Of a stretch of DNA of 64,000 bases, positions 2,236 to 32,167 are shown piece by piece. Within the stretch, counting starts at the first letter, position 1. The number at the start of each line of letters is the position of its first letter. The position numbers and the translations under genes are program-made. Source of the DNA: Clostridiales bacterium (GTDB taxonomy: Bacteria; Bacillota; Clostridia; Christensenellales; Pumilibacteraceae); contig JAFLVH010000004.1 in NCBI GenBank assembly GCA_022508365.1, positions 275 to 64,274 of the forward strand, written 5' to 3'. The notes beneath the pieces were generated by a model. That model was not told the origin of the DNA. It saw only the letters and a program-made list of their open reading frames with translations, and did no database searches.

Positions 2236-3912
2236 CTAACAATCTATGACCATGGGTAAAATCATGGGGCTACGGCGCGTCTTTTTGAAGATATAGTTTT
2301 TAAGCTCTTTTCTTATTGTGTTGTTGAGCGTGTTCCTGTCGTACTCCCTCAAGTCCAACCCGGACAGCAGGCGCGACACGGTCTCGCGGCACGCCTCAAA
2401 AAAGTCGTCGCCGCCATCCTTGTCGTACGCAAAGCCGCGCGAGGTTATATCTATTGCGGACGCCGTGCCGGAAAGCTCGTCAATGCAGATGACGGCAATA
2501 AGCAATCCGTCCTCCGCCAAATGCTTTCTGTCGCGCAACACCGAGCTGTCGGTATCACCAACGCCCAATCCGTCCACAAGCAGACTGCCCGACGCAACCT
2601 GTTCGCCTATCTTAAACATTTTGTGCGACACATATACGCAATCGCCGATGTCGGTTATTATTATATGTGAAGGCATTTCACCCATTGCCACGGCAAGCTC
2701 GGCATGCTTTTGCAGGTGTCTGTGTTCGCCGTGGACCGGGATAAAATACTGTGGCTTAAGAAGTGCGTGCATAAGCGACAGTTCGTCTCGGCAGGCGTGA
2801 CCGGAAACGTGTATCTCCGCCAAGCTCTCATAAATTACGCGTGCGCCGTGGCGGTAAATGTTGTTAATGACGGAATACACCATGCGCTCGTTGCCGGGTA
2901 TGGGATGCGCGGAGAGAACTACGGTGTCGTTGTAGCCAAGCTTGACCTTGGTAAACTCGTCCTGCGCCATGCGAGTGAGCGCACTCATCGGCTCGCCTTG
3001 ACTGCCTGTGGTGAGTATGACCAAATCCTTGTCGTCTACGTTTTTTACCTTTTCTATATCTATAATCTGCGAGCGATCTATCTTAAGCTCGCCTATCCTC
3101 GCCGCGCATTCCGCAACATTTATCATAGACCTGCCGCTAAACGCGACCTTGCGTCCGAACTCTGCCGCCAAATCTATTATCTGCTGCAAGCGGTGTATGT
3201 TTGACGCAAACGTCGCTATTATAAGCCGCCTGTCCTTGTTTTCGTTGAATATGGTGCGCATGGACCGCCCCACCGTCGCCTCGCTCATAGACGTGCCCGG
3301 ACGCTCCACGTTGGTGCTTTCGCAAAGTAACAGCAAAACTCCCTGCTTGCCTATTTCCGCAATGCGCTGCAGGTCTATCATATTTCCGTCAATCGGCGTA
3401 TAGTCCACCTTGAAGTCGCCGGTGTGAAACACGGTGCCTACAGGCGTGGAAATGGACAACGCGCAAGAGCCCGCTATAGAGTGCGACACCTTGACAAATT
3501 CCACCTTGAACGCCCTGCCGAGTGAAATAACATTACCCGGCTGAACAACGTTAAGATTGGCGTTGTCAATATGCATTTCGCGCAGCTTGTTGTCGATGAG
3601 CGCAAGCGTCAGCCTTGTGCCGAATATCGGAACATTACATTCCTTTAAAAAGTACGGAACGGAACCTATATGGTCCTCGTGGCCGTGCGTAATAACAATG
3701 CCGCGGATTTTGTCCTTGTTTAACATGAGATACGCGGGATCGGGAATGATAAGATCCACGCCCGGCGTGTCGGACGTAGGGAACGTAGAACCGCAATCGA
3801 TGATGATTATGTCCTCACCAAACTCAAGGGCGGTCATGTTTTTGCCTATTTCACCCACACCGCCCAAAAAGATAACCTTTAAGATAGGCTCAATAAATTT
3901 CTTATGCTGCAA
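2236..3912 (-). CDS. rnj: Ribonuclease J
   Basis: LGGVGEIGKNM, THGHEDHIG, HTGDFK, TGSQGEP, HVSGH, PVHGE motifs; TTG start with GGAGG. Confidence 0.95.
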   Translation of the reverse strand: MQHKKFIEPILKVIFLGGVGEIGKNMTALEFGEDIIIIDCGSTFPTSDTPGVDLIIPDPAYLMLNKDKIRGIVITHGHEDHIGSVPYFLKECNVPIFGTRLTLALIDNKLREMHIDNANLNVVQPGNVISLGRAFKVEFVKVSHSIAGSCALSISTPVGTVFHTGDFKVDYTPIDGNMIDLQRIAEIGKQGVLLLLCESTNVERPGTSMSEATVGRSMRTIFNENKDRRLIIATFASNIHRLQQIIDLAAEFGRKVAFSGRSMINVAECAARIGELKIDRSQIIDIEKVKNVDDKDLVILTTGSQGEPMSALTRMAQDEFTKVKLGYNDTVVLSAHPIPGNERMVYSVINNIYRHGARVIYESLAEIHVSGHACRDELSLMHALLKPQYFIPVHGEHRHLQKHAELAVAMGEMPSHIIITDIGDCVYVSHKMFKIGEQVASGSLLVDGLGVGDTDSSVLRDRKHLAEDGLLIAVICIDELSGTASAIDITSRGFAYDKDGGDDFFEACRETVSRLLSGLDLREYDRNTLNNTIRKELKNYIFKKTRRSPMILPMVIDC

Positions 3913-4085
3913 AATATTGCCTCCGTTATTACTCGATTTATTTAATATAAATGCGGTTTTATTTACAGTTTAAAATTACACCGAAATAAATAAGAATTAA
4001 ATTTATCTGCACAAAAAGACAACGTGATAGCTGTTGATTTTGCCTATGTATTAAAATGAATTATGCGAACCTTCGCGTCGATATA

Positions 4086-4200: not shown

Positions 4201-7200
4201 TTACATTACGGGAGGATTGTTAGGGTCGGTAGGCGCGCCGGGGTTAAGACCTATAGCTCCGCCTTGAGGAGGCACATTCTCACCTGCACCAAGCATAAGC
4301 CCGGGATCGTTCTGCGTAGGCATTGTGGGCGGCAGATAGCCAAACGACTGCATCATGCCCATGCTGCTTGCACCGAGGCGCATCATCTGCTCCTCTAACT
4401 CCATTTCGGAAAGCAATATAGCTTCCAACTCCTCTTGCTTGCGCTTGCGGCGCTTGACAAGGATTACGATGAGGATTATAAGCGCAATCAACACCAAAAT
4501 GCCGATGCCGACGCCCCACCATATAATCGGGTTGACCTCGTAGCTTATCATGATCTTGTCCCAGAACGACGGGTCGGGTCTGTCTATGTTCTTTATCTTG
4601 AACGTGACCTTGGTTACCTCGCCTGTGCAATCCATGACACCAATCGTTATGTTGCACTCGCCGTTGAAGTTGAACGTAATGTATAATAGCGTTCCGTCCT
4701 CGCTGACGCGCACAGAACAAATCGTAGGAGAAGATACGGATACGGACTTTGCGTCGAATGTAAGCTGATCGCCAAGCGGCAGCTCTACGTCGTCAAACAG
4801 GTCCGTCGGATTGAGCATAGCCGTTCCGTTGTTGTCCAAAACAAACGATCCGCGGCCGGTCTCAAACAGCAAGCCTTCCTCATTGTTGTTTTTAATGTAT
4901 TCCTTGAGTGTAGGCATGTTATTTTTGATGACGGTCACATTAAACGTCATGTGAATCGATTTTACGTCGGGATCGTCAATCGCGGTCTTGTTTTTGAACG
5001 TGACGTTCATTCTGATGTTTTCGGCTACGGATTCGCCCTTAATCATCCAGTCGTCGCCGTCCTTATACACGCGCACGTTACCGGACGCGGTAAGCTCGGT
5101 AATGGCGTATTCTGCGCCGGGGTTAAATTTGCCCGGTTCCTCCGTAGCATGATCCTTTATGCCAAAGGTATCGTCAATGGAGTTGAACAGCGCAGCGGCG
5201 TCGATCTTTGTGGGAAGGCTGCGAATGGCGGTTATGTCATTGAGCTTGATATCCGAAATATCGTAGCTGATAATAAAGTGGAGGATGAACTCGACAGTAC
5301 TGTATTCTATCGCGTCGGCGCCTTCCACAACGTCGGCAACAATCACACTGACATACTGCTCGCCGTAATAGCCGGCCTTGGGAGTGAACGTGCAATTATA
5401 CATGTTATCGGCAATTGCAATGCCCACAAGGTCGCTCGCACTGTCGCTGTCACGCACGCAGTGCTGATTGCCGTTGGAAGGATTGCCTTCGTAAACAGCC
5501 GATACACCCGCTATCCTCAAGGCGTCGCCGTTGAGGTCCTCGACATAATCGTTGATGTCTATGACAATCGGTTCGCCATCTCTGGTGTCGTAGCCGGTCA
5601 CAATAAACGGCTTGTTTTCCACACCGGCCTTAAGCGTAGGCGCAGCGTTGAGAATGTGTATGCGCACAGTAACGGTAAAGCCGAGGAACGGATTGGTAGG
5701 ATCGCCGCTGCGGTCGATAATACGCATTTTTGCGGTTGCGTCATCGATATTGCGGTTGTACGACAACAGGTTTATGCTGAACCCGGCAAAATGGTTTTTG
5801 TCCTCGGGCATAACATTATTGTCAAATCCGAACAGAGGTTTAATTACCGCCACGTCCTCGTTTGCTTTGTCCGAGCGTACCGTCAGCTCCTTGCCGTACA
5901 TCAGATACGAGTTGGATTCGGCGCTTTCCGCCCCGACAAGACGCATGGAATCGGTGTCCGTACGCATTCTTGTGTAGTCCGGATCGGCAACATACGTGCC
6001 TTGGCTATCGACAAAGTAGAACGGCGCAAGCGTCCTTTGCGGTACCATATATGCGTCTATAAAGTAGGAACGGTAATTTTCCTCATCTACCGAAAGCTGA
6101 TAATAGCCGTTTACGGGATCGGGCGTTACCTCAATAATCTTTGACGCGTCAAGGTCTATGTCAGCGTTTTTAATGGTTATTGTTACCTGAACCTCAACCG
6201 CCTGTCCGGCGCGGTCCTTTCCGTAAATATTGAACGGAACGTCTACTTCGGACAGATAATTTCCGTCAGCGTCTTGCACATCGATACGCCTGTTGATTGT
6301 TACGGCAATCGTGTATGCGGGAATTCCCTCCACCGGTTCGCTTGAGTTGTTTACCTCTATCGTAAATGCCTGAGGCTTGTTTATACCCTCGTTGGCGCGC
6401 CAGTCTATTTCGGCTGCGGTCGCGGCGCTGAATGCCCTGTTATAGTCCGGCGTAAGCACCGTGCTGGACTGGAAGCCGTCATACACGACATAATCGTTGA
6501 GGTCGGAATCGGTAAACAGCGAGCCGTACGGATCGTCGTTGTCGTACAGTTTAATAAAGATACGATTGTCGTTTTGACCGTCTTTCTTGCTGGTAACGTC
6601 GCCCTCGTAGCTGAGCACGCTCTCTTCTTCCGTAGCAATAGGCGCGGAGTCCATAACGTTTACATAGAAGATATCACCGCAAGCCGTGTCCACGTTGGAA
6701 ATGTTGACCGCGCGAGTATCTGCAATGTGTTTTTCGATCTGAACGTAAAGCGGAATCTCAACGTCTATATTTGCGGAAACCGGTCTGAACAGAAGTGACA
6801 CACCGTCATCGCCCACGTCAAACATGAAGTAACGCTGGAGGAAAAGCACTAGCGAACGGTTTACATGGGTCATGGTAGTGCCGTCATCATAGAAGCCACC
6901 TATAAGGAAGCTGTCTATGTTGAGATGCTTTTCGTTGAGGAACGCATTGTTACTTAAATCGCTTTCCGACTTAAGCGCAAGCACCTTTTTGTTGACAACG
7001 GAAGGATTTAAGTTGAACAGCGAGGAGATATTTTCAAGCGACATTGCCTGATACTCGCTTTCGCTGCTGCCCACCGTCGCCATAAAGGCGTAAATGCGCA
7101 CTTCGTAATGGCGGTTGAGCGAGCTGTGCATGATATCCGGGTCGGTCAAAGGCCGCGCGCTTGCAGCGGTTTGGTCAACCGACGCAGGCATACCGGGATA

Positions 7201-10200
7201 CGTGAGGAACTGGAACGTGCTTTGTACGTCAACAATGGTGTTGCGCTCGTCTTCGTCCTCGGGCAAATCGATGCTGTAACCGCTGTAATCGTCAAAGGAC
7301 TTGACGTTGACAGACGCGATAGATCCGCGCTGGAACTGCTCCTGACGCACGGAGGAATTGGTCATTTGTGCATCGTTGGTTATGCTTGAGTAAAGCGTGG
7401 AAAGACGTATTTCAATAGGAATAGCGTTTTCAAAGATATTGTTGCCGCTGTCGCGCACATAGAACCGGATAACATCCTCGTCAAAAGAGCTGTTGTACGT
7501 CTTGCACTCGATAGTAAACCACCTGTAATCGGGTGAAATCTCTATCGTGAACATGTCGTTGTAGTAGATCAACCTATTGTCGGGATCCTTGCTCATAGCG
7601 GTGTTGTTGAACGAAAAGACATTATAATCCGCTCTATCCTCGCTGTACAAGGCAAGTATGTCACCGCTGTCCGCATCGTATGCTATCTCGTCAAGCGGCA
7701 AGCGAACTTTTCCGTATGCCTTGACTGATCTGCCGGTGTTAAGCGTAACGTCCTTGTATGTGGCGGTAACGGTGGGAACGTTGTTAATATTCTGCGTCGT
7801 GTTCTTGTCGGTTACGTTGTCGGCAATCATGTACATGCTGTAAACGCCCTTTTGCAGTACCTGAGAACCCATAATATTCTCATATACAGGGCTTAACGCG
7901 GCGTTAAGCGTGTGACGATTGTCGCCATAATCGATTGCAACGGGCTTGGAGCTAACCACCGTAACGTACATAGTAAAGGTAATGCGCGCCATGTTGGCAT
8001 CGACAACCGTAATCGTTACAGGCATGTTGGTGCAAACAGAGCTTGCCGTGATTGTTATATCCAAGCAGTACTGCATACCGGTGCTCTGAGACGAACCCTC
8101 AAGCGGCAGACCGTCTCCGCGCCTGCCTAACTCGAAGCAATTGTCGTTGTAATAGTCAACGCTCTCAAGACGCAAGCCCCACGGCATATCGTCGTCTGCA
8201 ATTGCAAGATAGCCGAGGTGCTGATTGCTGCCGCCGTCGCTTACGTAGCTGTGAAGAGCATACTGACCGTTGCCATCGATATTCCTTTCCGTAAGCTGCT
8301 CGTACTTGACCGTTGCGTTTTCGGCAAGCAGATTGGCTTGCATAATATTGGCATATCTGTGACTGGGATCCGCTCTGTTCGCCACAATATCGTAAGAAGT
8401 GGATGCACGTGCGGACGGCGTGGGAGTTGTGTAATCGGAACTCGATTCATTAGCCTCGGAACCGACAAACCTGTTGTACGGCGTGGTAACAACCGTAAAG
8501 CTGTCACCCACCTGCATTTGAAGGCCGTTTGCTTTGTTAACAGCTTTGCCGCGAATTGTGGGAGTCTGGTTGACAACGTTGATCTTGATGTACAGATCTT
8601 TTGTCTTGTTGCCGTCGCTGTCGGTAAAGTTAATCTTAAACGAGAAGTCGTCCTGCTGAACGGAAGTAGTGACATTGTCAACGGTGGTCTGATACGTTGT
8701 ACGCCTATTGGCGCGGAACATGATATCATTGCCGATGGGAATAGCGCCATAAGCCAACGCATCCTGCACCTGCGCTCCGCCGTTATCGTTGTAATAGTCC
8801 ATGTACATTATCACGTCCGGCATATAGGAATAACTAACACCGATGTAATTGGGATTGGACGAGTACACGGCATTACCTTGGCGCAGCTTCAAGTTATCCT
8901 GCGCTATCGTGTTTGCATTGGTGGAGTATGTCTGAATATTGTTTCTGTTGTTAAACGGCGAAACAAGATATGTGCCGCTTTCCAACCTGAACATATCATC
9001 TCTGCGCAAAGTTTCCGAATCGTAATTATTTCTGTTGCCGGCTTTTTCTTTGAGCAAATCGTAATCAGCCTTCCAGAAGAAATTGGTGCCGGTCTTGAGC
9101 AGACTGTCGCTGGTGATGACATGCGAGATATTAAGCGTGTAAGGCTGATTTATGGCAAGCGATACATTGATCTGCTTGCTTCCGTCCGAAGCGTAGTCTT
9201 CAAGGTTGTCTACAAGCTTAGCAGACGAACCGGAGATAGCTACACGGATCTCAACCGCTACATAAGACGCAGCGCCGAATCCGTCGCCGTGATCGTCGTA
9301 AATGAGCACTTTAAGCGGATAGTACGCGCCACCCCCCGCATTGTTGGAGTCAATAAGCTTAAGTCCGCGCTCCAAATAGTAATCCGAAACTGCGGTAAGA
9401 TTGGAGCTGCCAATCATATCGGGGTTGATAGACGTCTTTGCCTTGGGAGTGATAGAGAGCGTAGATCCGTCAAGCGACACGCCAACGGAGAAGTACTTAT
9501 CGTAGCCCTCATTGTTGTTGTACGCGTAAAAACCGGTGTTTGGCTGATATTCGCTTGTCCTGCTGTCTACAGCGCTCTTGTCTCGGGCATTCAGATAGTT
9601 TTTAATAGACGTCTGCGCATATTGGCTTGTTGACGTATTGCTGAATGTAATATTGGTGTTTGCACTGTCCTCATCAAGCTCCAACACTCGTTGATAGCCG
9701 GTTAAATACTTCAATTGCCGCAGCGAGCTATACGAGAACTTGGCAGTATCGGACTTGGAAGCGTTAACCGTATTGTCCGAATTGTAAACCACGTCGGCGT
9801 CTGTATACTTAATGACTTTGCTAATGTCAGGGACAGTAGACGCACGGGACAATGCAATGTACTGAGTATCCATGTCAGTAGTCAAATCAAGCATCTCGAT
9901 GTAGTAACCGGCAGCATCGTGCTGCTTTACGCCGTTGCTTGTTTGTTCAAGATCGATAGGGCTGTTGCCTATTTCCAGCTTAAACGTCAATGTGGCGGAG
10001 TATTGCGCGCCGTCCGAATCACCGTAGCCACCGTAATTGGGCATAACCTTGTTTGTAACGCTATTGAATGTGCAAGCAACAACCTTAACGGTGATTGTAA
10101 GCGACGCAACTTGCGCACGCGTATCTTTTTTGCTGAGCTTAAGTCCAAACAAGTGCTCCTGCAGACCGTATTGCTTTTCTGCATTATTCACAACAAGCTG

Positions 10201-13200
10201 ATTGGAAAGATACAGCATCCGTCCGTATTCGCCCACAACGTCGTTGGCGTACAGACCCCTGCTTGATTCAACATTTATAAATTGTTCAACGCCGTCCTCT
10301 TTGTATGTGGGAATGGAAAGACGGTTATTCAGATAAGGGCTTGCTAAAAGTTTTGTCTCATCCTCTTGCTTGTAGGTGTTGCCGACAAGATCGAAGAATG
10401 TGATTGCGACGTAAGGGTTTGTATCACTGCCCTTCCAAGTGTCAACACCGTCGCTTATTGTTACGGCATCACCGTAACCCATATATCTAAGCTGATAACC
10501 GTTTACATCTCCGGTATCGTACGATATATACGAATCCTGTTTGAAGGAAATAGCTCCGGTAGTGTCGTTAATCGTATAGAAGTCCTTATTGAGCGCAAAA
10601 TAGCTCATAGGCACATACGTCGCCTCATTTGAGTTGCCCGATACATGTATGGTGTCGCTGTATTTGAATGCGCTTTCCCTACGACCGGAAACTACATTAC
10701 CGCCCGATCTGATCGGATAATTAAACCCGTTGGTCGCATTTGCATTTGCTATGGAGTATTCCACACCGGAATGAACGCCTGCAAAAGTTTCGTCAGTACC
10801 GTTTGCCGAACGATTTTTCAAAGTGACCACGCCGGCACTCTGTTGCGTAGTGATGACCTTTGACGAACCGTCATAGTACAGATTTTTTATGTCGCTTTCC
10901 GCATCATACTGCGAGGTTTTAATTCCGTCATAAGTGGGAACATAAACCGCACCGTTTGAATCCGCAGGATCGGCAACGGTATAGAATCCGTCAAACTGAT
11001 TGTAATAGGTGTACGGCACAATACCTATGCCGTTGATAAACATGTCGTACGAGAACAATTGATTGGCAAATACTACGACCTTGTTTGCATTGCCTGCATC
11101 GTGAGCCGTGGCAAGACCCGCCGTATCACCGCCGAGCTTTGTCTCGTCGCGCATGGAGATGCGCAGATTTATATATTGGCTGGCGTCGGAGGAAGAATTG
11201 GGCTTGACCATAATAGCCCAGTCTGTGACTGCCCATCTGCCCTCTTCGTCAAATAACTGCCTATAGACATTCAAACGGTAAGGCGCGTCTTCCTTAACCA
11301 AATCGGACGCCTTATATGCGGTGTAGCCGCTGCCCGATCTGACAAAGTAAACTATATCCGTACCTTCGACGTCAATCTTCTTTTTAAGTCCGGCGTCGGT
11401 AGTGTCATAGTTAATGCCCTGTCTTAGCGCTATTAACGCGCCGATAGCTAAGTTGGAATTGCTCCTGTCGGCTAATGGCGTGTTCCAGCCTATACCGAGC
11501 TGAGGTACCGCAAGCTTGTATGCGGCAATATATTCATCGTCGGTAGTGCAGCCTGACAAATTGGCATTGCGGTATCCGACGTCGACAGGATTTGTACTGC
11601 CGGGCGCCCTCGCAGCCGAAATGACAACGCCTTGTAAACTATCGGTGTCGCTTATCAAATACTTGATCTGACCTGACGACGCACTGAATTCCGCGCGAAC
11701 AGCGGTTGCCGCATCGCTTCCCGAAACAAAGAAGCGGGCGCGACTCATATCCTGCGCGGTTAAGCTCTCCACATCCCACAGATATTGGTCTACATTAGTG
11801 CTTTCGCCGTCATATACCGGCACAAAGCCGTTGTCGCCGGTGTTGTACGTGAAGCCGGCATTGATGACCTCTATACGAACGTAGCATACCGATCTTTCAA
11901 GCGTGCCGGAGTCGTTATATCTGCCGTCTGTCGCATAGAACCGTATATAAAGAGTTTCAACGGCTTGCGTGGAGTTGAGCGCAACAATCGTCAACGTGGT
12001 TGCCGTCATTGTGACGTTTACATAATTGCCGTTGTACGATCTGCCCGCAAAATCGACTTCGCTGCCGTTTGAATCGTTTTTGTCTACTACCTGGAAACCT
12101 CCGGTAATGTCAAACCAGACTTCGCTGTCCTCGTTGTCAACAAGGAAGTTGTTTTTCTCATCGACGCTGTCCGTCGCCGCGTAAATGACAAGCGTAGACG
12201 GCTTTATGCTGCCGGGAATGAACGAATTGCTGTTTTCTACACTCTCCTCGGACAAAGGATTTGTCGTGAGCGTATAGTACTTTTCCGGATACTGAACGCG
12301 AGGCGAGCTGTTGATAACGTCAATCTCGACGCGAATCTTGATAATGCCGTACGCGTCATCCGAAGCGCTTGCGCCGGTACGGTCGCGTACGGTAAACTCC
12401 AAGACCGCGGGCGAACCGCTTAACGTGCGTCTATTAGCCGTGATAACGGCGTAGTCAATGTTGTATGACTTATTAGAATACTCTATTTTGCTTCCGAACG
12501 AATAACTGACATATCCGTCGCCGGTCATGTCCGCGCTTGCAAAAAGCTGTCTGTTGGTATTGGAATACGGGTCATAGGTAAACGGATCGAGGCTGGAGCC
12601 GTCGATAGTTCTTGCAAAGTACAGTTTGTCAATAGACGTTGTGCCGCTTGACGTCGTGCCAAACCTGTTGTCGGCAGTCACCCTGTTAAACGTGCGCTCC
12701 GCCTGCAAAGCGCCAATCATATTGAACAAGCTCTCGGTGTAACTGCTGCCGTAATATGGATAGCTGTTAGCCGATGTGGCAATCCCCTTGATGTTTATAA
12801 TGTTGGTGCCGGTTGTCGGTCCGTTGACAGAGAACACACCTGTGGACGTGTTGAACCCACCGGACAATCCGTTTAGAGTAAAGCCGTTAGAAATGCTAAT
12901 ACCCGCATTGGTCATGTTTTCGTCTGTGATAAGATCGTAAGGCGATACAAGAACCGTGGAGTGGGCAGGCACGCTATACTTGATTGTTGCCGTTGACTGG
13001 GTGTACGTGGACCTAACGGTTACGCCGTTATATGTGTAACCGAGCTGAGCGACGTTGGCGGAATCCAATGTCACCGGCGCCTTGTTGCTGACGTTAACGG
13101 CGATGTATGTGGATATCTCCGCTTCTGCGCTGTCCTTAACCTTGACTTCAAGATGCAAAAATCTGTTGTGCGTCCAGTTGTTTAGCGTGATCTTAAGTCC

Positions 13201-16143
13201 TTTTATCACTACGCACTGACCGTACATGCTGTTTGTATCCCTGAGCTCGCCAAGCACTGTGCTTACACGCCCGCCGAAGTACGCTGTAGGAATATAGATA
13301 TCAACATAGTCTACTGTAAAGTAATAGCCGGACTGATTGGCTGAAATCGAAGATTGAATTTGCGCGAGAGACGAACTGATCCTGACAAGCTCGTTAAGCT
13401 TGCCCGCACCGGTCTGCCCTACCGACGTAATGCTTTGACCTCTTAACATGTTTGTAGTGAAGAAGTTGTCTGCATCACCGGCAAGCGGACGCAAGCCCGC
13501 AGAAGAATACGTGCTGTCGTCAACCTTGAGCATGCCGATAGGATAGGTTTGCTGGCTGATTGTTATGCCCATAGGCGTAAAGTAGAACACCTCGCCTTTG
13601 TCGCCGTTGGCCGTGGGCATTTCACTTACAGCCGAGGCGTTGCGCTCCGTTTGCAATGTATTGGGAGCTCTGTTTGTTACCTGTATGCCGAGAGGCAGCC
13701 AAATACCGTTATCCGAAGTGTCGTTTTTGTCCTGTACACGTATAAGAATATAGAAGTGACCGGCGTTAGCGACACCGCTTGCCATCTGCACGCCGCCGCT
13801 TATAGAGCCGCCCGTAGCCGCTTGAGCGGAGGTTCTGGTGGACTTATACATGGAATACGAGGCACGAAGTCCGGTAAGCGTAATCGTATCGTTGCTGAAC
13901 GAATACTGCACAAACGCCACGTCGGTATTTGCCGAGCCGTTGCTTATGTACCAGCTTTCAAACCCGGTTGTATTATTCTCGCCCTTTAGCTGACCTGTGG
14001 CAAGAACGCCGGTAAACCTATCTGCATTGGTATTGTCCGCAATTACGTTAAAGTACGAATTGCTGCCGTTTTTTGTTGTCTGGACTTCGCCGTACTTGTT
14101 TGTCAATAAAAACTCGTGCGTCGGAACCACCACCTCTTTAATCTGGTGCGACGTGGAGTTGATAGTGCCGTTTGCGCCGTCAATATCGGTGAAGTAAGTG
14201 TTGAGGCTGAAGGTTGCCGATGCAAGCGTACCCACCGTTGCTACCGGAGCCACATTGGTTCTGACCGTCGGACGGGTATTGTCCATCTTAAAGACTATAT
14301 CAACCGTCATCCTCGTGGATGTACTCGAGGTTACATTGGCCTCAACGTTGGAAAGACCCATTGCGTTGACCGGTGTCTTTTCCACCTCGTACACCGTTAC
14401 GGAAAACACCTGGTATGCCGGGTCGGGCGTTATACAAGTGAAAGTGAGCGTGTCGTAAACGTATGACAGCTTAGCCTTGGCGGAATTATATGCCGTGCCG
14501 CCTGCCGTATTTGCGTCATATTCGTTAATTTTATATTTTCTGGAAGATCCGGTGATTGACGAAACACTGCTGAACGACGCGACAATCTTATCAAGACTGT
14601 TGTTGAAGCCCTTGATAAGATCGGACGCGTTTATCTTAACGCCTTCGTTATATCTGATGGGTTGCTCAAACACCGCGGTATACCTGTTGGTGCCGAGCGG
14701 ATTATAAAGATTTGTCGTGTCTATTGCACTGCCGGCAGGCGCCGTAGCCGTCTTTGACAAGCCAAAGTGCAGCTTATTGCCGCCGGTCTGTGATGAAACA
14801 ACGTCCGCTGCCGCATTTGTGCGCTGCGAAATTGTGTTGGCAGGCACGACAACCGTAAACGGTATAACCGAAAACGCGCGCGACGATGTACTTGTTCCGA
14901 AGTTATCGCGAATTTTTACATACAGCTTGATTGTGCCGTTTGTTGTACACCCGTCATATCCCGCTCGAGGATACTTCTTTATCTTGGTTATGTTAAGCTG
15001 ACTGTTGCTCGACCATGTCCAATCGAAATATTCGGTAGCAAGCGTGGTGCACGCGGAATTTACCCACAACCTTTGATTGGCGGTTGTGGTAAACGTATCG
15101 ACAGCGCTTGCATTGCCGTCGGTAAAGTACACGCCGGTAAGCGTAGCGTTGGCGTGGTTGGCATGGTCGCTGTCCTGCGCCAAAGAGCTGGCTGTAATCG
15201 CCTGGCTTATCGCGTTGCCCGTACGAGCGGGCAATGTTATCGTCTTGTTGAGCGAAACAGGCGCCTGATTGATGCTGATGGCAGTAATTCTAACCCTGCC
15301 GTTGCCGGACGCAGAAGAATTGCCATAGCTGTTGCCCGAAGAAGTAAAGCTGCCGCTTATGTAGTTGGAGCCGCAGTAGCTGCTTATAGGGTCGTCGCCG
15401 TGAACGACTGCACCGCCGTAATAACCGCCGCCGCCGCCGCCCTCGTCGTTGGAGTAGCTGGAACGGTGTCTGGACACATCGCCGCTTGCGCCTTGAAACA
15501 GCACGCCGCAAGAGCTGAACTTTTGAGTCGTTCCGGTAGCGCTACCGCCGCCGCCGCCGCAAGCAACAATTATGCGGTTGCTAGTGCTGGGGGACGTTCT
15601 GATATCGGTACCGCCGCCGCCGTTGTAGCCGCCGTAACGCCAAGTGGTGTTGTTGCCGTCGATACTGCCGGTACCCGCAGCGCCGGTGCCGCCGCAATAT
15701 ATATATATAGTTGTAGCAGACGTATACGTGATTTGACCGTAAGAATAACCGCCCAAACCGCCGTTGGCCGTGCCGGTATTGGCGCCGTTGTTGCCGGTAT
15801 AACCGCCGCGTCCGCCCCAAAGCTCAAACTTCCAGGTGCCCTGAGGAAGAGTTACCGAATAATAGCTGCCATTGTACGAATAATCAATATAGTTGTTATT
15901 AGTAAACGTACCGTTATTGATATACGTCTGAATGGTATTACCCGTGACGTTGGTGTAGTTGGCGGAAGTTGTAGCCTCCGTCTGCTCCACATCATTATCC
16001 ACACTCACCTTTTTGGTGGGCGACGTGGTGAAAACAGCACAAGTGACGGCTACCGCCAATGCGGTGATAACCGTAGCAAGCAGCAACAGTACGCGCCGCC
16101 CCACTCTTGATTTGCCTTCGGTCTTGTCAGTATGATTGTTCAT
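4201..16143 (-). CDS. Giant (~3980 aa) surface protein: N-terminal signal/TM, Gly-rich domain, tandem cadherin/Ig-like domains, C-terminal TM, Pro/Met-rich cytoplasmic tail
   Basis: Track ORF is 4201-16188; the likely start is ATG at 16143 (GAGAGGT upstream). Hydrophobic RRVLLLLATVITALAVAVTCAVF; WGGRGG...GGYNGGGGTDIR...IIVACGGGGG; repeated N-x-x-P linkers and D-x-D motifs; TM IIWWGVGIGILVLIALIILIVILV followed by KRRKRK. Confidence 0.85.
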   Translation of the reverse strand: MNNHTDKTEGKSRVGRRVLLLLATVITALAVAVTCAVFTTSPTKKVSVDNDVEQTEATTSANYTNVTGNTIQTYINNGTFTNNNYIDYSYNGSYYSVTLPQGTWKFELWGGRGGYTGNNGANTGTANGGLGGYSYGQITYTSATTIYIYCGGTGAAGTGSIDGNNTTWRYGGYNGGGGTDIRTSPSTSNRIIVACGGGGGSATGTTQKFSSCGVLFQGASGDVSRHRSSYSNDEGGGGGGYYGGAVVHGDDPISSYCGSNYISGSFTSSGNSYGNSSASGNGRVRITAISINQAPVSLNKTITLPARTGNAISQAITASSLAQDSDHANHANATLTGVYFTDGNASAVDTFTTTANQRLWVNSACTTLATEYFDWTWSSNSQLNITKIKKYPRAGYDGCTTNGTIKLYVKIRDNFGTSTSSRAFSVIPFTVVVPANTISQRTNAAADVVSSQTGGNKLHFGLSKTATAPAGSAIDTTNLYNPLGTNRYTAVFEQPIRYNEGVKINASDLIKGFNNSLDKIVASFSSVSSITGSSRKYKINEYDANTAGGTAYNSAKAKLSYVYDTLTFTCITPDPAYQVFSVTVYEVEKTPVNAMGLSNVEANVTSSTSTRMTVDIVFKMDNTRPTVRTNVAPVATVGTLASATFSLNTYFTDIDGANGTINSTSHQIKEVVVPTHEFLLTNKYGEVQTTKNGSNSYFNVIADNTNADRFTGVLATGQLKGENNTTGFESWYISNGSANTDVAFVQYSFSNDTITLTGLRASYSMYKSTRTSAQAATGGSISGGVQMASGVANAGHFYILIRVQDKNDTSDNGIWLPLGIQVTNRAPNTLQTERNASAVSEMPTANGDKGEVFYFTPMGITISQQTYPIGMLKVDDSTYSSAGLRPLAGDADNFFTTNMLRGQSITSVGQTGAGKLNELVRISSSLAQIQSSISANQSGYYFTVDYVDIYIPTAYFGGRVSTVLGELRDTNSMYGQCVVIKGLKITLNNWTHNRFLHLEVKVKDSAEAEISTYIAVNVSNKAPVTLDSANVAQLGYTYNGVTVRSTYTQSTATIKYSVPAHSTVLVSPYDLITDENMTNAGISISNGFTLNGLSGGFNTSTGVFSVNGPTTGTNIINIKGIATSANSYPYYGSSYTESLFNMIGALQAERTFNRVTADNRFGTTSSGTTSIDKLYFARTIDGSSLDPFTYDPYSNTNRQLFASADMTGDGYVSYSFGSKIEYSNKSYNIDYAVITANRRTLSGSPAVLEFTVRDRTGASASDDAYGIIKIRVEIDVINSSPRVQYPEKYYTLTTNPLSEESVENSNSFIPGSIKPSTLVIYAATDSVDEKNNFLVDNEDSEVWFDITGGFQVVDKNDSNGSEVDFAGRSYNGNYVNVTMTATTLTIVALNSTQAVETLYIRFYATDGRYNDSGTLERSVCYVRIEVINAGFTYNTGDNGFVPVYDGESTNVDQYLWDVESLTAQDMSRARFFVSGSDAATAVRAEFSASSGQIKYLISDTDSLQGVVISAARAPGSTNPVDVGYRNANLSGCTTDDEYIAAYKLAVPQLGIGWNTPLADRSNSNLAIGALIALRQGINYDTTDAGLKKKIDVEGTDIVYFVRSGSGYTAYKASDLVKEDAPYRLNVYRQLFDEEGRWAVTDWAIMVKPNSSSDASQYINLRISMRDETKLGGDTAGLATAHDAGNANKVVVFANQLFSYDMFINGIGIVPYTYYNQFDGFYTVADPADSNGAVYVPTYDGIKTSQYDAESDIKNLYYDGSSKVITTQQSAGVVTLKNRSANGTDETFAGVHSGVEYSIANANATNGFNYPIRSGGNVVSGRRESAFKYSDTIHVSGNSNEATYVPMSYFALNKDFYTINDTTGAISFKQDSYISYDTGDVNGYQLRYMGYGDAVTISDGVDTWKGSDTNPYVAITFFDLVGNTYKQEDETKLLASPYLNNRLSIPTYKEDGVEQFINVESSRGLYANDVVGEYGRMLYLSNQLVVNNAEKQYGLQEHLFGLKLSKKDTRAQVASLTITVKVVACTFNSVTNKVMPNYGGYGDSDGAQYSATLTFKLEIGNSPIDLEQTSNGVKQHDAAGYYIEMLDLTTDMDTQYIALSRASTVPDISKVIKYTDADVVYNSDNTVNASKSDTAKFSYSSLRQLKYLTGYQRVLELDEDSANTNITFSNTSTSQYAQTSIKNYLNARDKSAVDSRTSEYQPNTGFYAYNNNEGYDKYFSVGVSLDGSTLSITPKAKTSINPDMIGSSNLTAVSDYYLERGLKLIDSNNAGGGAYYPLKVLIYDDHGDGFGAASYVAVEIRVAISGSSAKLVDNLEDYASDGSKQINVSLAINQPYTLNISHVITSDSLLKTGTNFFWKADYDLLKEKAGNRNNYDSETLRRDDMFRLESGTYLVSPFNNRNNIQTYSTNANTIAQDNLKLRQGNAVYSSNPNYIGVSYSYMPDVIMYMDYYNDNGGAQVQDALAYGAIPIGNDIMFRANRRTTYQTTVDNVTTSVQQDDFSFKINFTDSDGNKTKDLYIKINVVNQTPTIRGKAVNKANGLQMQVGDSFTVVTTPYNRFVGSEANESSSDYTTPTPSARASTSYDIVANRADPSHRYANIMQANLLAENATVKYEQLTERNIDGNGQYALHSYVSDGGSNQHLGYLAIADDDMPWGLRLESVDYYNDNCFELGRRGDGLPLEGSSQSTGMQYCLDITITASSVCTNMPVTITVVDANMARITFTMYVTVVSSKPVAIDYGDNRHTLNAALSPVYENIMGSQVLQKGVYSMYMIADNVTDKNTTQNINNVPTVTATYKDVTLNTGRSVKAYGKVRLPLDEIAYDADSGDILALYSEDRADYNVFSFNNTAMSKDPDNRLIYYNDMFTIEISPDYRWFTIECKTYNSSFDEDVIRFYVRDSGNNIFENAIPIEIRLSTLYSSITNDAQMTNSSVRQEQFQRGSIASVNVKSFDDYSGYSIDLPEDEDERNTIVDVQSTFQFLTYPGMPASVDQTAASARPLTDPDIMHSSLNRHYEVRIYAFMATVGSSESEYQAMSLENISSLFNLNPSVVNKKVLALKSESDLSNNAFLNEKHLNIDSFLIGGFYDDGTTMTHVNRSLVLFLQRYFMFDVGDDGVSLLFRPVSANIDVEIPLYVQIEKHIADTRAVNISNVDTACGDIFYVNVMDSAPIATEEESVLSYEGDVTSKKDGQNDNRIFIKLYDNDDPYGSLFTDSDLNDYVVYDGFQSSTVLTPDYNRAFSAATAAEIDWRANEGINKPQAFTIEVNNSSEPVEGIPAYTIAVTINRRIDVQDADGNYLSEVDVPFNIYGKDRAGQAVEVQVTITIKNADIDLDASKIIEVTPDPVNGYYQLSVDEENYRSYFIDAYMVPQRTLAPFYFVDSQGTYVADPDYTRMRTDTDSMRLVGAESAESNSYLMYGKELTVRSDKANEDVAVIKPLFGFDNNVMPEDKNHFAGFSINLLSYNRNIDDATAKMRIIDRSGDPTNPFLGFTVTVRIHILNAAPTLKAGVENKPFIVTGYDTRDGEPIVIDINDYVEDLNGDALRIAGVSAVYEGNPSNGNQHCVRDSDSASDLVGIAIADNMYNCTFTPKAGYYGEQYVSVIVADVVEGADAIEYSTVEFILHFIISYDISDIKLNDITAIRSLPTKIDAAALFNSIDDTFGIKDHATEEPGKFNPGAEYAITELTASGNVRVYKDGDDWMIKGESVAENIRMNVTFKNKTAIDDPDVKSIHMTFNVTVIKNNMPTLKEYIKNNNEEGLLFETGRGSFVLDNNGTAMLNPTDLFDDVELPLGDQLTFDAKSVSVSSPTICSVRVSEDGTLLYITFNFNGECNITIGVMDCTGEVTKVTFKIKNIDRPDPSFWDKIMISYEVNPIIWWGVGIGILVLIALIILIVILVKRRKRKQEELEAILLSEMELEEQMMRLGASSMGMMQSFGYLPPTMPTQNDPGLMLGAGENVPPQGGAIGLNPGAPTDPNNPPVM

Positions 16144-16170
16144 ACATTTACCTCTCGAGTATCGATGTCT

Positions 16171-16233
16171 TGTTAACAATTTGTTCACAATTGTATGGAT
16201 ATACAGTTAAATGTTAACATATTGTTCATAATT
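16171..16233. promoter_or_regulatory. Two 22-bp direct-repeat operator-like sites
   Basis: TGTTAACAATTTGTTCACAATT (16171-16192) and TGTTAACATATTGTTCATAATT (16212-16233): 19/22 identical, 41 bp apart. Confidence 0.55.
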
Positions 16234-29488: not shown

Positions 29489-32167
29489 ATGACTATAAGC
29501 AAAAAAATCAGATATGTTATTATAATGATGCTGTCGGTGGCGCTTGTCGCTGTCGGGGTAATTATGCTGCCGTCCGCGGCGGCAATAGCCGAAGAAGCGG
29601 GCTTTGTGAAGCTTTCCCCCGTGAAAACCGAGGGCGAAAACACCTACTTTTACTTTGATAATCCCCTGTCCGTCTATGCCGACGGCGAGGTGAAAATCGT
29701 CTCCGGGCAAAACGGCATTTACTTTGTATCCGAATCCGCCGAAACCGGCGAAACGGAAATTTCGCATAGAGTGACGCCTGCGGACAAGGTGTACCGTCGC
29801 ACCACACACCAAACCAATACCGAATATTTGATTGTACTGTACGACGGAAAAATCTCCGTGTTCGGCGCGGACGAGGAAGCTTTTGATTTTTCGCCGAGCG
29901 TGTCCGGCGATATAGTTGACTTTACCGTTTGGGAGGACAAGCTTTTTGCCGTCACACGCACGCAAGCGGTTGTCGCTCCCCTCACTACGACAGGCATAGA
30001 CAGCGACAACGCCTTTGTCTCCCCTCTTGCTTCCGGCATGCAAACTACGGTGACGGCAAGCAAGGTCACCGCCATGAAAGGCAAGCTTTACGTGTCGATT
30101 AAAGCGGTGTTCGGCAACAAGTGGGACGTCGGCGCAGTGGATATTTCCGAGCTTTCAAAAGGCGCTACCTGCAGACTGGAAAACGTACTCAACCAATCCA
30201 ACGAAATATTATCGCTCACCGCGTCCGACGAAAGCGCCGCTATCTACACGCTTACACGCAGCGAGATAGTGGGATACACCACCACAGGCGGCGGATTGCG
30301 CAGAGATTGCGTGACAGACGGCAGCGATATTACGGATATTTTTGCGTACGGCGACAGCGTGTACACTCTGGACGCGCTCAACGGGCTGCACGTAATGAAC
30401 AAAGACTTGTCTAGCGGTCGCGTTATTGTGGCGTCCGCAAGCGCCGGCGAAGGATTTTTTAACGTTCCCTACGGAATAGCCGCAAAAAATTCCACAATTT
30501 ACGTCGCCGACACGGTAAACAACAGAGTTGCTATCTACTCCGGCGGAAACATTCAGTACATAAGCCGAGAATTCCGCACTCCCGTTTCGGTCGCCGCCGA
30601 CAATGGCGGCACGCTGTACGTCGCTTATGACGATAACAAGGTTGGAATTTTCCATACCGGCGTATACACCCAATCAAGCGAATATACCGTTACTGCCGCT
30701 ACGCTAGGCATGATACGCCAAATTACCGTCGACGCCGACAAAAAACTGTATATCCTGTCCGACACCGGGCTGTGGTGGGTTGACGGCGATTACAATCTTC
30801 ACAGTTTGACAAAAGTTGTGTACGACGCGATTACGCTCAGCATAGGCAAAAACAATCTGTATGCGCTAAGCGGCGACAGCGTCGTAATGATTGACAAGTC
30901 CGACGGCACGGTCAAAAACACGCGCACAATAGAAAGCGGCGCTGTTTCCATAGCCGTAGACCTCAACGACACGGTGTTTGCGCTGTACCGCGATAAGATT
31001 GTCAGCGTAGACTCGGCAGAAAAAACCGTCGAATTCGCGCTCACACTGGACGGCGAGGCTTATACCCTAGGCGATCGCATGGGAAAAATAGTTCTCTGCT
31101 TTATGGAGAACGGTCTGGACGAAGAAACCAACAATTACGCGATTATCCTTGACACGTTTAGGCACCGCATCCTAAAGGCGGACGGAAACAGCCTTAACGC
31201 GAGGTTTGTAGACACGTCGTACGAATCCCCCGATATTGTGGGCAGCGCCGATGCGGCGGACGCCCAAAACGGCATCATTTACAAGGTGCGGTTTGACACG
31301 GCGCTGTTTGACTACCCTATTGAAACAAAGTCCGATTACACTCTGCATGGCGGCGGATACGTAATTATGCCCGATTACAGCATTGTCGCGCCCGATTATA
31401 AACCCGAGGAAACACCGGAGTTTGCGTTAGTGCTTGTGGACGACACGGAAAACAACAGACTGATTCAGGGCTATGTGTACAGAGACGCGCTTACTAAGGT
31501 TCCATACACAGATCCCCCGTCAAGTATTTGCACGGTCACAGGCGAGCTGGGTATTGCCGTGTATAAGTGGCCGAGCCGCAATGCCAAGCCCGTATCGGGC
31601 TATGCCGCGGTAGCCAAAAATACAAAATTTCCCATGCTTGACTTTGTGCAGACTGATACGGACAAAGAAAAATTCGGGCTTAGAGACGGGCGCGGATATT
31701 ATTGGTACAGAATACAATTGGACGACAGCGGCAAAGAGGGCTACGTGCTTGCTATTGACGTGATAACCACCGATTATAAACAAGCCAACATTTTGCCCGA
31801 CTACAACGCCGAAATTGTGGCCTACAAGGGCATCAAAGTAGCCAAAACTTACGACCGCGACGCAAGCGGAAATTACCATGAAGTCAGCGACGTCACGCTT
31901 AAAGCCGGCACCAAGGTGGAGGTTGTAGGCGCGTTTGACTCGTCAGAGCGCTACACCAAAATCAAATTTTTGGACGAAAAAACACACAAAACGGTCACTT
32001 GCTATGTGGAAACCGTGCATCTAAAGTACACGGGACTTAATATCGTGCTGATTGTTGCGCTAATTGTCATTGCCGTCACCGTCACTCTTGCCGTAATAAT
32101 AATATCAAGGGTGTACTACTCCAAAAAGAAAAGACTGAACGGCAACGACGAGGAAATTCAGGATTAA
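29489..32167 (+). CDS. Secreted, membrane-anchored NHL/beta-propeller protein with C-terminal SH3-like modules and TM anchor
   Basis: Signal peptide; FNVPYGIAAKNSTIYVADTVNNRV and PVSVAADNGGTLYVA NHL repeats; WYRI...EGYV modules; C-terminal IVLIVALIVIAVTVTLAVIII followed by basic residues. Confidence 0.75.
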   Translation: MTISKKIRYVIIMMLSVALVAVGVIMLPSAAAIAEEAGFVKLSPVKTEGENTYFYFDNPLSVYADGEVKIVSGQNGIYFVSESAETGETEISHRVTPADKVYRRTTHQTNTEYLIVLYDGKISVFGADEEAFDFSPSVSGDIVDFTVWEDKLFAVTRTQAVVAPLTTTGIDSDNAFVSPLASGMQTTVTASKVTAMKGKLYVSIKAVFGNKWDVGAVDISELSKGATCRLENVLNQSNEILSLTASDESAAIYTLTRSEIVGYTTTGGGLRRDCVTDGSDITDIFAYGDSVYTLDALNGLHVMNKDLSSGRVIVASASAGEGFFNVPYGIAAKNSTIYVADTVNNRVAIYSGGNIQYISREFRTPVSVAADNGGTLYVAYDDNKVGIFHTGVYTQSSEYTVTAATLGMIRQITVDADKKLYILSDTGLWWVDGDYNLHSLTKVVYDAITLSIGKNNLYALSGDSVVMIDKSDGTVKNTRTIESGAVSIAVDLNDTVFALYRDKIVSVDSAEKTVEFALTLDGEAYTLGDRMGKIVLCFMENGLDEETNNYAIILDTFRHRILKADGNSLNARFVDTSYESPDIVGSADAADAQNGIIYKVRFDTALFDYPIETKSDYTLHGGGYVIMPDYSIVAPDYKPEETPEFALVLVDDTENNRLIQGYVYRDALTKVPYTDPPSSICTVTGELGIAVYKWPSRNAKPVSGYAAVAKNTKFPMLDFVQTDTDKEKFGLRDGRGYYWYRIQLDDSGKEGYVLAIDVITTDYKQANILPDYNAEIVAYKGIKVAKTYDRDASGNYHEVSDVTLKAGTKVEVVGAFDSSERYTKIKFLDEKTHKTVTCYVETVHLKYTGLNIVLIVALIVIAVTVTLAVIIISRVYYSKKKRLNGNDEEIQD

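Follow-up and report, generated by a model that had tools for sequence, protein, structure and literature searches.

A giant, probably membrane-anchored protein with an ALK/LTK-type glycine-rich domain, encoded next to groES-groEL in Pumilibacteraceae

Pumilibacteraceae (GTDB CAG-552) are prevalent, barely studied bacteria of the mouse gut, and a 64,000-nucleotide stretch of DNA from one of them (Clostridiales bacterium, assembly GCA_022508365.1, contig JAFLVH010000004.1; the whole stretch is called the window below) raises the question of what a gene of about 12 kb does for its owner. Such a gene is a large investment for any bacterial genome; this one has kept its position and architecture across the group and is unnamed. 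A sequence-only reading of the window had described the product as a receptor-like adhesin of about 4000 amino acids (aa), with an ALK/LTK-type glycine-rich tip, a cadherin stalk, and a cytoplasmic tail. The analysis reported here points, with moderate confidence, to a Sec-exported, membrane-anchored adhesive fibre that has a glycine-rich domain (GRD) as its head and a tail coupled to a cytoplasmic partner.

The gene consists of a single open reading frame (ORF) running from window position 16188 to 4201 on the minus strand, an orientation that corrects the sequence-only reading, and has 3,980 codons when counted from the ATG at 16143. This ATG is the likely start, as GAGAGG (16151-16156) is located 7 nt upstream of it, and an ORF this long in DNA of 49% G+C is not a product of chance. 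Comparison of the window with its closest relative (locus L001) gave a ratio of nonsynonymous to synonymous substitution rates (dN/dS) of 0.093 for the gene versus 0.005 for that of RNase J; the gene is therefore under purifying selection. Diversifying selection along the gene was considered and rejected, with dN/dS at 0.06-0.13 in every segment of the ectodomain in the same comparison. Hydropathy identified only two hydrophobic segments, at residues 14-32 and about 3870-3896. The overall layout is a predicted Sec-type signal peptide, the GRD, ~3,560 residues of non-repetitive modules, one transmembrane (TM) helix, and an 84-residue tail (Table 1). The length of the protein, its N-terminal hydrophobic segment, and its single TM helix followed by a tail of about 85 residues, with a charged helix and a Pro/Met/Gly-rich part, had all been recognized from the sequence alone and were confirmed.

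Near the N-terminus, the match to Pfam PF12810 (ALK_LTK_GRD) covers model positions 1-242 of 243, with E=1.2e-14 and 55.3 bits (cutoff 24.5), and Pfam detected the same domain in 12/12 aligned orthologues (best E=5.9e-24). When a profile of the full-length family alignment was compared to PDB sequences, only the GRDs of ALK, LTK, and SCD-2 matched, as nine chains with E values of 1.6e-6 to 3.2e-5. With every one of the orthologues above the Pfam threshold and the profile matching ALK/LTK structures, the glycine-rich domain proposed by the sequence-only reading is borne out. Glycines at G110, G113-114, G131-132, G175-177, G197-199, and G236-240 are invariant in the orthologues. In a PHROGs search, the GRD region alone matched, and the matching families are without known function. 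The domain is found at residues ~40-350 in most full-length family members; two or three tandem GRDs at the N-terminus were seen in a few distant members (P0110, P0117, and P0126 are examples of variant members). Other bacterial proteins with a GRD are large surface proteins that carry PKD, Ig-like, Flg_new, type IX secretion system (T9SS)-tail, RHS, or cadherin domains.

Related loci were collected by a scan of one genome per GTDB species, which returned 24 loci with relatives at 33-89% identity. All belong to Clostridia. Their sources are metagenome-assembled genomes (MAGs), most of them from the mouse gut, and the cultured Anaerocaecibacter muris CLA-AA-M11, a species placed by NCBI in Pumilibacteraceae, corresponding to GTDB f__CAG-552; its orthologue makes experiments possible. 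RNase J (rnj) and a U32 peptidase are encoded downstream of the giant gene, and groES-groEL lies upstream in divergent orientation, followed by genes for a PHP protein, a hydrolase resembling glycoside hydrolase family 63 (GH63), RNase E/G, and others. The order groES-groEL, giant gene, rnj, U32 is kept wherever flanking DNA was available among the loci. Identities among the loci are 88-99% for RNase J, 88-96% for GroEL, and 33-89% for the giant protein. Judged by these comparisons, the giant genes at the loci are orthologues of a fast-evolving, single-copy core gene of small gut Clostridia (Pumilibacteraceae and their relatives). Paralogy was considered for the MAG HAN098, which contributes two loci (L001 and L023), and was rejected, with both copies adjoining rnj (99% and 88% identical). 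The giant proteins of HAN098 are 89% and 33% identical to that of the window, and the bin probably mixes two related species.

The reach of the family beyond these loci was determined with HMMER by searching 1.84 billion cluster representatives exhaustively, the query being the last 1,189 residues of the protein. The family comprises about 99 clusters (50% identity), many of which match solely from the last module through the TM helix to the tail. Uncut members mostly have 3,000-5,500 aa, and some distant members reach 4,800-5,500 aa. The neighbours of distant members are other housekeeping genes (uppS-cdsA-dxr-rseP-ispG, trkAH-ispDF, and pyruvate carboxylase), and no partner gene travels with the giant gene. 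Word-index protein searches with pieces of the protein returned only family fragments, with no match above 2,097 aa, and the N-terminal query was swamped by unrelated GRD proteins. In one Logan contig (L025, 6001-6567), gene calling splits off the last 188 residues, and this separate call overlaps a 3,468-aa one upstream; the split is likely a frameshift or an assembly error. The members examined are all named "hypothetical protein," and no description of the protein was found in literature on PF12810, Pumilibacteraceae, Anaerocaecibacter, and Christensenellales giant proteins. Overall, the family is uncharacterised and its architecture apparently undescribed, and it falls among the giant Ig-like surface proteins, a known kind.

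Regarding export, the N-terminal segment is probably a Sec signal peptide, with cleavage predicted after TCA. The sequence T-C-A is compatible with signal peptidase I under the -3/-1 rule; among orthologues, C35 never varies and T34 almost never does; and distant relatives carry ANA, AEA, or VFA sites in the same place, a few residues past the hydrophobic core. At the opposite end, KRRKRK directly follows the C-terminal TM helix, which places the tail on the cytoplasmic side. Because the V-T-C-A site fits the rule, the relatives have A-x-A-like sites, and the basic cluster follows the TM helix, a cleaved signal peptide and a type I topology with the GRD distal are favoured. The sequence-only reading had called this topology eukaryote-like; the type I arrangement is plausible in view of the A-x-A sites of distant members, but "eukaryote-like" is an overstatement because two other proteins of the window share the layout of a signal peptide and a C-terminal TM helix. 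Those two proteins are encoded by ORFs 29489-32167 (+, 892 aa) and 38963-42403 (+, 1,146 aa). Neither matched a Pfam family. Each begins with a signal peptide that has an A-x-A site and closes with a TM helix, a K/R cluster, and a cytoplasmic tail of acidic character. In this organism, surface proteins appear usually to be anchored by a TM helix at the C-terminus.

Other modes of surface attachment were also evaluated. As the sequence-only reading had stated, LPXTG and S-layer homology (SLH) signals are absent: over the whole protein, neither the Gram_pos_anchor nor the SLH model matched at E<1. An LPPTM string is present on the cytoplasmic side, where it follows the TM helix and the basic cluster, an order reversed relative to that of a sorting signal. 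RTX/HemolysinCabind models gave no match, the C-terminus is formed by the TM helix and tail, and no type I secretion system (T1SS) genes are located nearby. Of the NCBIfam xxx-CTERM models for exosortase/rhombosortase-type sorting signals, only GG_III-CTERM gave a weak match, on the TM helix (E=0.057, 13.3 bits versus 22). With this score below the cutoff and ~75 conserved residues present after the basic cluster, the C-terminus does not qualify as an xxx-CTERM sorting signal.

Between the GRD and the membrane, the ectodomain was divided at its linkers into modules M1-M13 of 114-632 aa each. The linker motif, [IVLFM]x[IVLFM]..[NDS]xxP, occurs at about residues 295, 625, 827, 1023, 1281, 2528, 2734, 3168, 3502, and 3744, and the orthologue consensus supplied further linkers at about 1430, 2062, 2306, and 3858. 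The hydrophobic-x-hydrophobic...N-x-x-P linkers that had been read from the sequence are thus present; the modules they delimit, at 114-632 aa, are far above the ~110 aa of a cadherin domain, and the sequence-only reading is corrected in this respect. The classical cadherin motif DxNDNxP is shortened to N-x-x-P in the linkers. All-against-all profile-profile comparison of the modules peaked at 40% probability, confined to the last strand and linker, and thus revealed no module-module repeats, and the modules align collinearly among orthologues down to 36% identity. Together with the kept synteny at the related loci, these results agree with the earlier description of an old, stable, non-repetitive gene. 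The D-x-D motifs that had been pointed out are real and conserved, with 13 clusters of the type aromatic-x-D-x-D invariant in the 12 orthologues, where Asp is invariant at 22.7% of its ectodomain positions versus 5.7% for Glu. These invariant Asp clusters would fit Ca2+ bound at the linkers between domains and are probable structural Ca2+ sites.

Whether the stalk is built of cadherin domains along its whole length, as the sequence-only reading had it, was assessed with profile searches and structural models. None of the cadherin or Big models (PF00028, PF17892 Cadherin_5, and PF17963 Big_9) matched above the Pfam threshold, and the whole protein had no match to them at E<1. Scans of the 12 orthologues produced one sub-threshold Big_9 match (0.005) and one to Cadherin_5 (0.029). 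Module by module, M13 approached Cadherin_5 (22.4 bits versus 26.5) and Big_9 (19.9 versus 23.6), and M12 scored 16.9 and 15.2 bits, respectively, with E values of 1e-4 to 0.02 for the matches of the two modules; M1-M11 yielded nothing in the per-module Pfam scan. Profiles of M1-M13 compared to Pfam-annotated cadherin, PKD, Big_2, and fn3 proteins (P0057, P0015, P0028, P0066, and P0048) gave nothing at a probability of at least 20%, and a single-sequence search against the PDB returned chance matches only, such as an SH2 domain at E=0.5.

AlphaFold2 models were built for residues 1282-2306 (middle, 1,025 aa) and 2792-3980 (C-terminal, 1,189 aa), the latter with a 34-sequence family alignment; together they cover about half of the ectodomain. 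The C-terminal model (pLDDT 79.8) includes a domain at about 2922-3168 that carries helices; its last sandwich leads into a long TM helix and then a short one, beyond which the tail is disordered. A Foldseek search of the PDB with this model gave 97 matches at E<1e-3. Rank 1 was a nuclear-pore chain, after which the list is headed by E- and N-cadherin, desmocollins, protocadherins, and the cadherin-like domains of RET (E 1e-13); other Ig-like arrays also appeared, including ciliary central-apparatus proteins, an Aeromonas RTX-adhesin extender, and the S-layer proteins SbsB, EA1, and SbsC. TM-scores were low because the chains are multi-domain. In the middle model (pLDDT 80.3, with a pTM of 0.61 that exceeds the one of the C-terminal model), M5 is a plain sandwich. 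Foldseek found a single PDB match at E<1e-3 (a cadherin map fit, E=4.6e-4, probability 0.38), with arginine deiminases near 2e-3, and thus no confident structural analogue; BFVD yielded only generic, low-probability phage Ig-like proteins. The cadherin stalk therefore stands in part. Judged by the models, the membrane-proximal third may fairly be called "cadherin-like"; it is the region best matched by cadherin ectodomains and the one that holds M12 and M13 with their sub-threshold Cadherin_5/Big_9 matches. For the middle modules, modelled as a rather compact body of 1,025 aa lacking a confident analogue, the term is unproven.

The cytoplasmic tail is the best-conserved part of the protein. 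Residues 3901-3950 of the 12 orthologues show 78% identity to the window protein versus ~43% for the ectodomain, and the tail has the lowest dN/dS in the protein (0.024, window versus L001). Within the helix E-L-E-A-x-L-x-S-E-M-E-L-E-E-Q-M-M-R-L, 18 of 19 positions are invariant; read from the sequence, this helix is amphipathic, with one hydrophobic and one acidic face. In the AlphaFold2 model, the tail is helical to about residue 3924 and disordered beyond. The consensus of the wider family (n=88) runs from a K/R cluster through REEiEALLVSEMELEEQMLRLA, YQSYGYLPPT, DPglMLGxG, and LNPG to a variable P/Q/G-rich spacer, and the tails span 30-206 residues from the helix start. They end in acidic sequences such as GFDPDDF, FNDDDL, or VPTDSDM, and the last residue is F, L, or M in 69/85 complete tails. 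Some distant tails contain P/Q-rich insertions of >100 residues ahead of the acidic C-terminus. No match covering the tail was found in Pfam, NCBIfam, or the PDB, nor was any enzymatic or signalling domain. We infer that the tail is a disordered chain of several short docking motifs. The sequence-only reading had suggested that it could couple to cytoplasmic partners and had asked for its conservation among homologues; as the most conserved part of the protein, it likely does so. A tail of short linear motifs conserved far beyond the rest of the protein points to a putative partner, and such multi-motif tails are, to our knowledge, uncommon in bacteria.

Two candidate explanations linked to the tail were rejected. 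The tail did not behave as a portable module: at the level searched, full-length matches all carry the last module as well, and short matches are fragments. A linked partner gene was likewise rejected, as the neighbours are housekeeping genes and other genes flank the distant members.

Upstream of the giant gene, the 230-bp intergenic region shared with groES is poorly conserved apart from a single block that does not vary among 11 species (the window plus L006, L009, L010, L012, L014, L015, L017, L018, L020, and L024). This block contains TTGACA and both copies of a near-palindromic box, TGAACAAWWTGTTAACA. Elsewhere in the 64-kb window the box has no exact match, and in the fetched loci the 15-bp core of the box occurs exclusively upstream of the giant gene. 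The pair is probably a dedicated operator pair for a putative regulator, and it should lead to the regulator of the gene.

Table 1. Coordinates of the giant gene, the parts of its product, and the upstream boxes (window positions)
Feature	Residues	Window position	Strand	Basis or content
Coding sequence with stop codon (4201-4203)		4201..16143	-	3,980 aa; ORF list, translation
Signal peptide candidate	1-37	16033..16143	-	Basic n-region, ~17-20-residue hydrophobic core, conserved V-T-C-A
ALK/LTK-type GRD	95-288	15280..15861	-	Pfam PF12810
M1-M4	296-1281	12301..15258	-	Each ends in an N-x-x-P linker; no Pfam match
M5-M7	1282-2306	9226..12300	-	AlphaFold2: plain beta-sandwich, then mixed beta and alpha/beta domains
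M8-M9	2307-2734	7942..9225	-	N-x-x-P linkers at 2528 and 2734
M10-M13	2735-3858	4570..7941	-	About seven beta-rich domains; last three plain cadherin/Big_9-like sandwiches
TM helix	About 3871-3896	4456..4533	-	Hydropathy; continuous helix 3872-3907 in AlphaFold2 model
Cytoplasmic tail	3897-3980	4204..4455	-	KRRKRK stop-transfer, acidic amphipathic helix, YxSxGYLPPT, DPxLMLGxG, LNPG, hydrophobic last residue
Two 17-bp near-palindromic boxes, TGAACAAWWTGTTAACA		16212-16228 and 16171-16187	-	41 bp apart, adjoining invariant TTGACA

From this architecture we infer adhesion, Ca2+ binding, cleavage of the signal peptide, and the existence of a partner for the tail. The protein would be exported by Sec and held in the cytoplasmic membrane by its single C-terminal TM helix. 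Signal-peptide cleavage would free the N-terminus and leave the GRD farthest from the membrane, as a likely ligand-binding head, and the ~3,560 residues behind it would form a long fibre or stalk of about 20 unique domains. Many of these domains are predicted to be Ig/cadherin-like beta-sandwiches with the invariant Asp clusters, and some would be elaborated by alpha/beta insertions. The 84-residue tail would dock the fibre to a conserved putative intracellular partner. In its most likely role the protein would attach the cell to a surface, be it host mucus, particles, or other cells, and the tail would link that attachment to the cell interior. The gene would be transcribed from a promoter equipped with a dedicated pair of operator-like sites. 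Should the protein turn out to be no more than a large adhesin, a known class would simply gain another, ordinary member.

Several observations weigh against this adhesive fibre. The N-terminal hydrophobic stretch, at ~20 residues, is TM-like, and V-T-C-A-L-C-F is kept in close orthologues more than a disposable signal peptide predicts. The middle third combines a rather high pTM with a missing analogue, and part of the "stalk" may therefore be a compact body of other function. Adhesins are usually repetitive, length-variable, and often accessory, whereas this protein is non-repetitive, of near-constant length, and core, and would fit the part of a structure or of a machine no less well. No partner for the tail, moreover, was found among the neighbouring genes. 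The points on the N-terminus speak for an uncleaved signal-anchor, with the ectodomain as a giant loop tethered at both ends and the GRD near the membrane. We consider this unlikely, given that the T-C-A site and its canonical counterparts in distant members argue for cleavage and that Gram-positive signal peptides often have hydrophobic stretches of ~20 residues. Constant length, unique modules, a core gene, and so conserved a tail are not typical of adhesins, and they keep two further explanations alive. One is a structural envelope component, an S-layer-like coat or spacer of Ig-like domains needed by every cell, whose tail would fix it to envelope-synthesis or cytoskeletal machinery. A single-copy core gene at a fixed position among housekeeping genes, members of similar length (most have 3,000-4,300 aa) with collinear modules, and purifying selection are all consistent with such a role, as are the Foldseek matches to SbsB, EA1, and SbsC and the same TM anchoring in other surface proteins of the genome. 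No SLH or other wall-binding module was matched, however, and known S-layer subunits do not resemble a monomer of 3,980 aa that bears a ligand-type domain at its far end. The matches to S-layer proteins are also weaker than the best cadherin ones and reflect generic Ig arrays, and a dedicated operator pair would suggest that expression is regulated, not constitutive. An envelope component is in our view improbable.

The other explanation is a trans-membrane coupling device, by analogy either a receptor or the "leg" of a machine for surface motility or cell-cell attachment, in which binding of a ligand by the GRD would pass a signal or force through the TM helix to a motor, cytoskeletal, or signalling partner bound by the tail motifs, much as integrins, apicomplexan TRAP adhesins, or the Gli proteins of Mycoplasma mobile work. 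The pattern of conservation is suggestive here: the tail is the most conserved part, with short linear motifs, variable spacers, and a usually acidic end with F, L, or M, and at the level searched it occurs on no other architecture. In animals, moreover, the GRD is a ligand-binding receptor module. The tail nevertheless lacks an enzymatic or signalling domain, no partner gene is linked, and the case is drawn from conservation alone. The three cultured Pumilibacteraceae species are described as slow-growing, with few carbohydrate-active enzymes (CAZymes), and as growing on agar medium only; these traits would suit the adhesive fibre, and growth on agar would also suit a coupling device, but motility is unreported for these bacteria in the same source (bioRxiv 10.1101/2022.03.07.483007). 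We give the coupling device only a small chance. A bolder version, equally doubtful to us, would make the protein the outer arm of a new coupling system, in which the acidic helix, YGYLPPT, DPxLMLG, LNPG, and the acidic F/L/M end dock to the cytoskeleton, divisome, or a motor, under the control of its own dedicated repressor. If true, attachment by an ALK-type head would be tied mechanically or informationally to the cell interior, as a bacterial counterpart of integrin- or TRAP-type adhesins.

Two other genes of the window were recorded in passing. A bacterial serpin is encoded at 36610-37938 (+; Pfam Serpin, E=5e-40), and the adjoining gene codes for a glutamate dehydrogenase; few bacteria have serpins. 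The ORF at 57994-59544 (+) encodes 516 aa; two hydrophobic segments lie at its N-terminus, and Pfam gave no match.

Compared with known systems by sequence tests, the protein is a member of the GRD family, and membership in cadherin, LPXTG, SLH, RTX, or xxx-CTERM classes was not demonstrable. Ebh/Embp of Staphylococcus exemplify giant Gram-positive surface proteins held by a C-terminal TM helix: they have a signal peptide and a basic stretch on the cytoplasmic side of that helix, lack LPXTG, and consist of many near-identical, largely helical repeats; we know of no description of a conserved multi-motif tail in them. The present protein resembles them in size, in its signal peptide, in the basic stretch after a C-terminal TM helix, and in the absence of LPXTG, but its domains are unique and beta-rich, its tail is the best-conserved part, and no search revealed sequence similarity. 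With the RTX-adhesin extender of Aeromonas hydrophila (6xi1) and cadherin ectodomains (3q2v and 3q2w) it shares a C-terminal third that is modelled as tandem beta-sandwiches, these being among its best Foldseek matches. Like cadherin-like and Big_9 extenders, it has linkers ending in N-x-x-P, invariant x-D-x-D clusters, and weak matches in M12 and M13; it differs from them in that no module exceeds the Pfam threshold and in that the modules are unique, 114-632 aa long, and provided with alpha/beta insertions. Unlike RTX adhesins, it would be anchored by a TM helix and tail rather than by type I secretion and retention.

Gli349 and Gli521 of Mycoplasma mobile and the apicomplexan TRAP-family adhesins are large proteins of the cell surface that have one TM segment and couple to an internal machine through a short cytoplasmic part; the tails of TRAP are acidic and carry a conserved aromatic residue close to their end. 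The giant protein is similarly large and modular or non-repetitive, with a single TM helix and a short cytoplasmic part, and most tails of its family have a TRAP-like end. Neither sequence nor demonstrated structural kinship connects them, however, and we know of no motor in these Clostridia; the likeness is one of functional analogy, not of membership. Kinship with the ALK/LTK GRD family (PF12810; 7mzw, 7n00, 7nx0, and 7lir) is of another kind, comprising a whole-model match, invariant Gly runs, and the placement of a GRD in the ectodomain of a predicted single-pass membrane protein. In contrast to ALK and LTK, the giant protein has no kinase, and Pfam scans of the 12 orthologues gave no family besides the GRD. 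Its host is a bacterium, its GRD is at the extreme N-terminus of a 3,980-aa chain, and some relatives carry the domain in tandem. A bacterial ALK-type GRD, presumably displayed at the end of a long fibre, could show what this fold binds outside animals.

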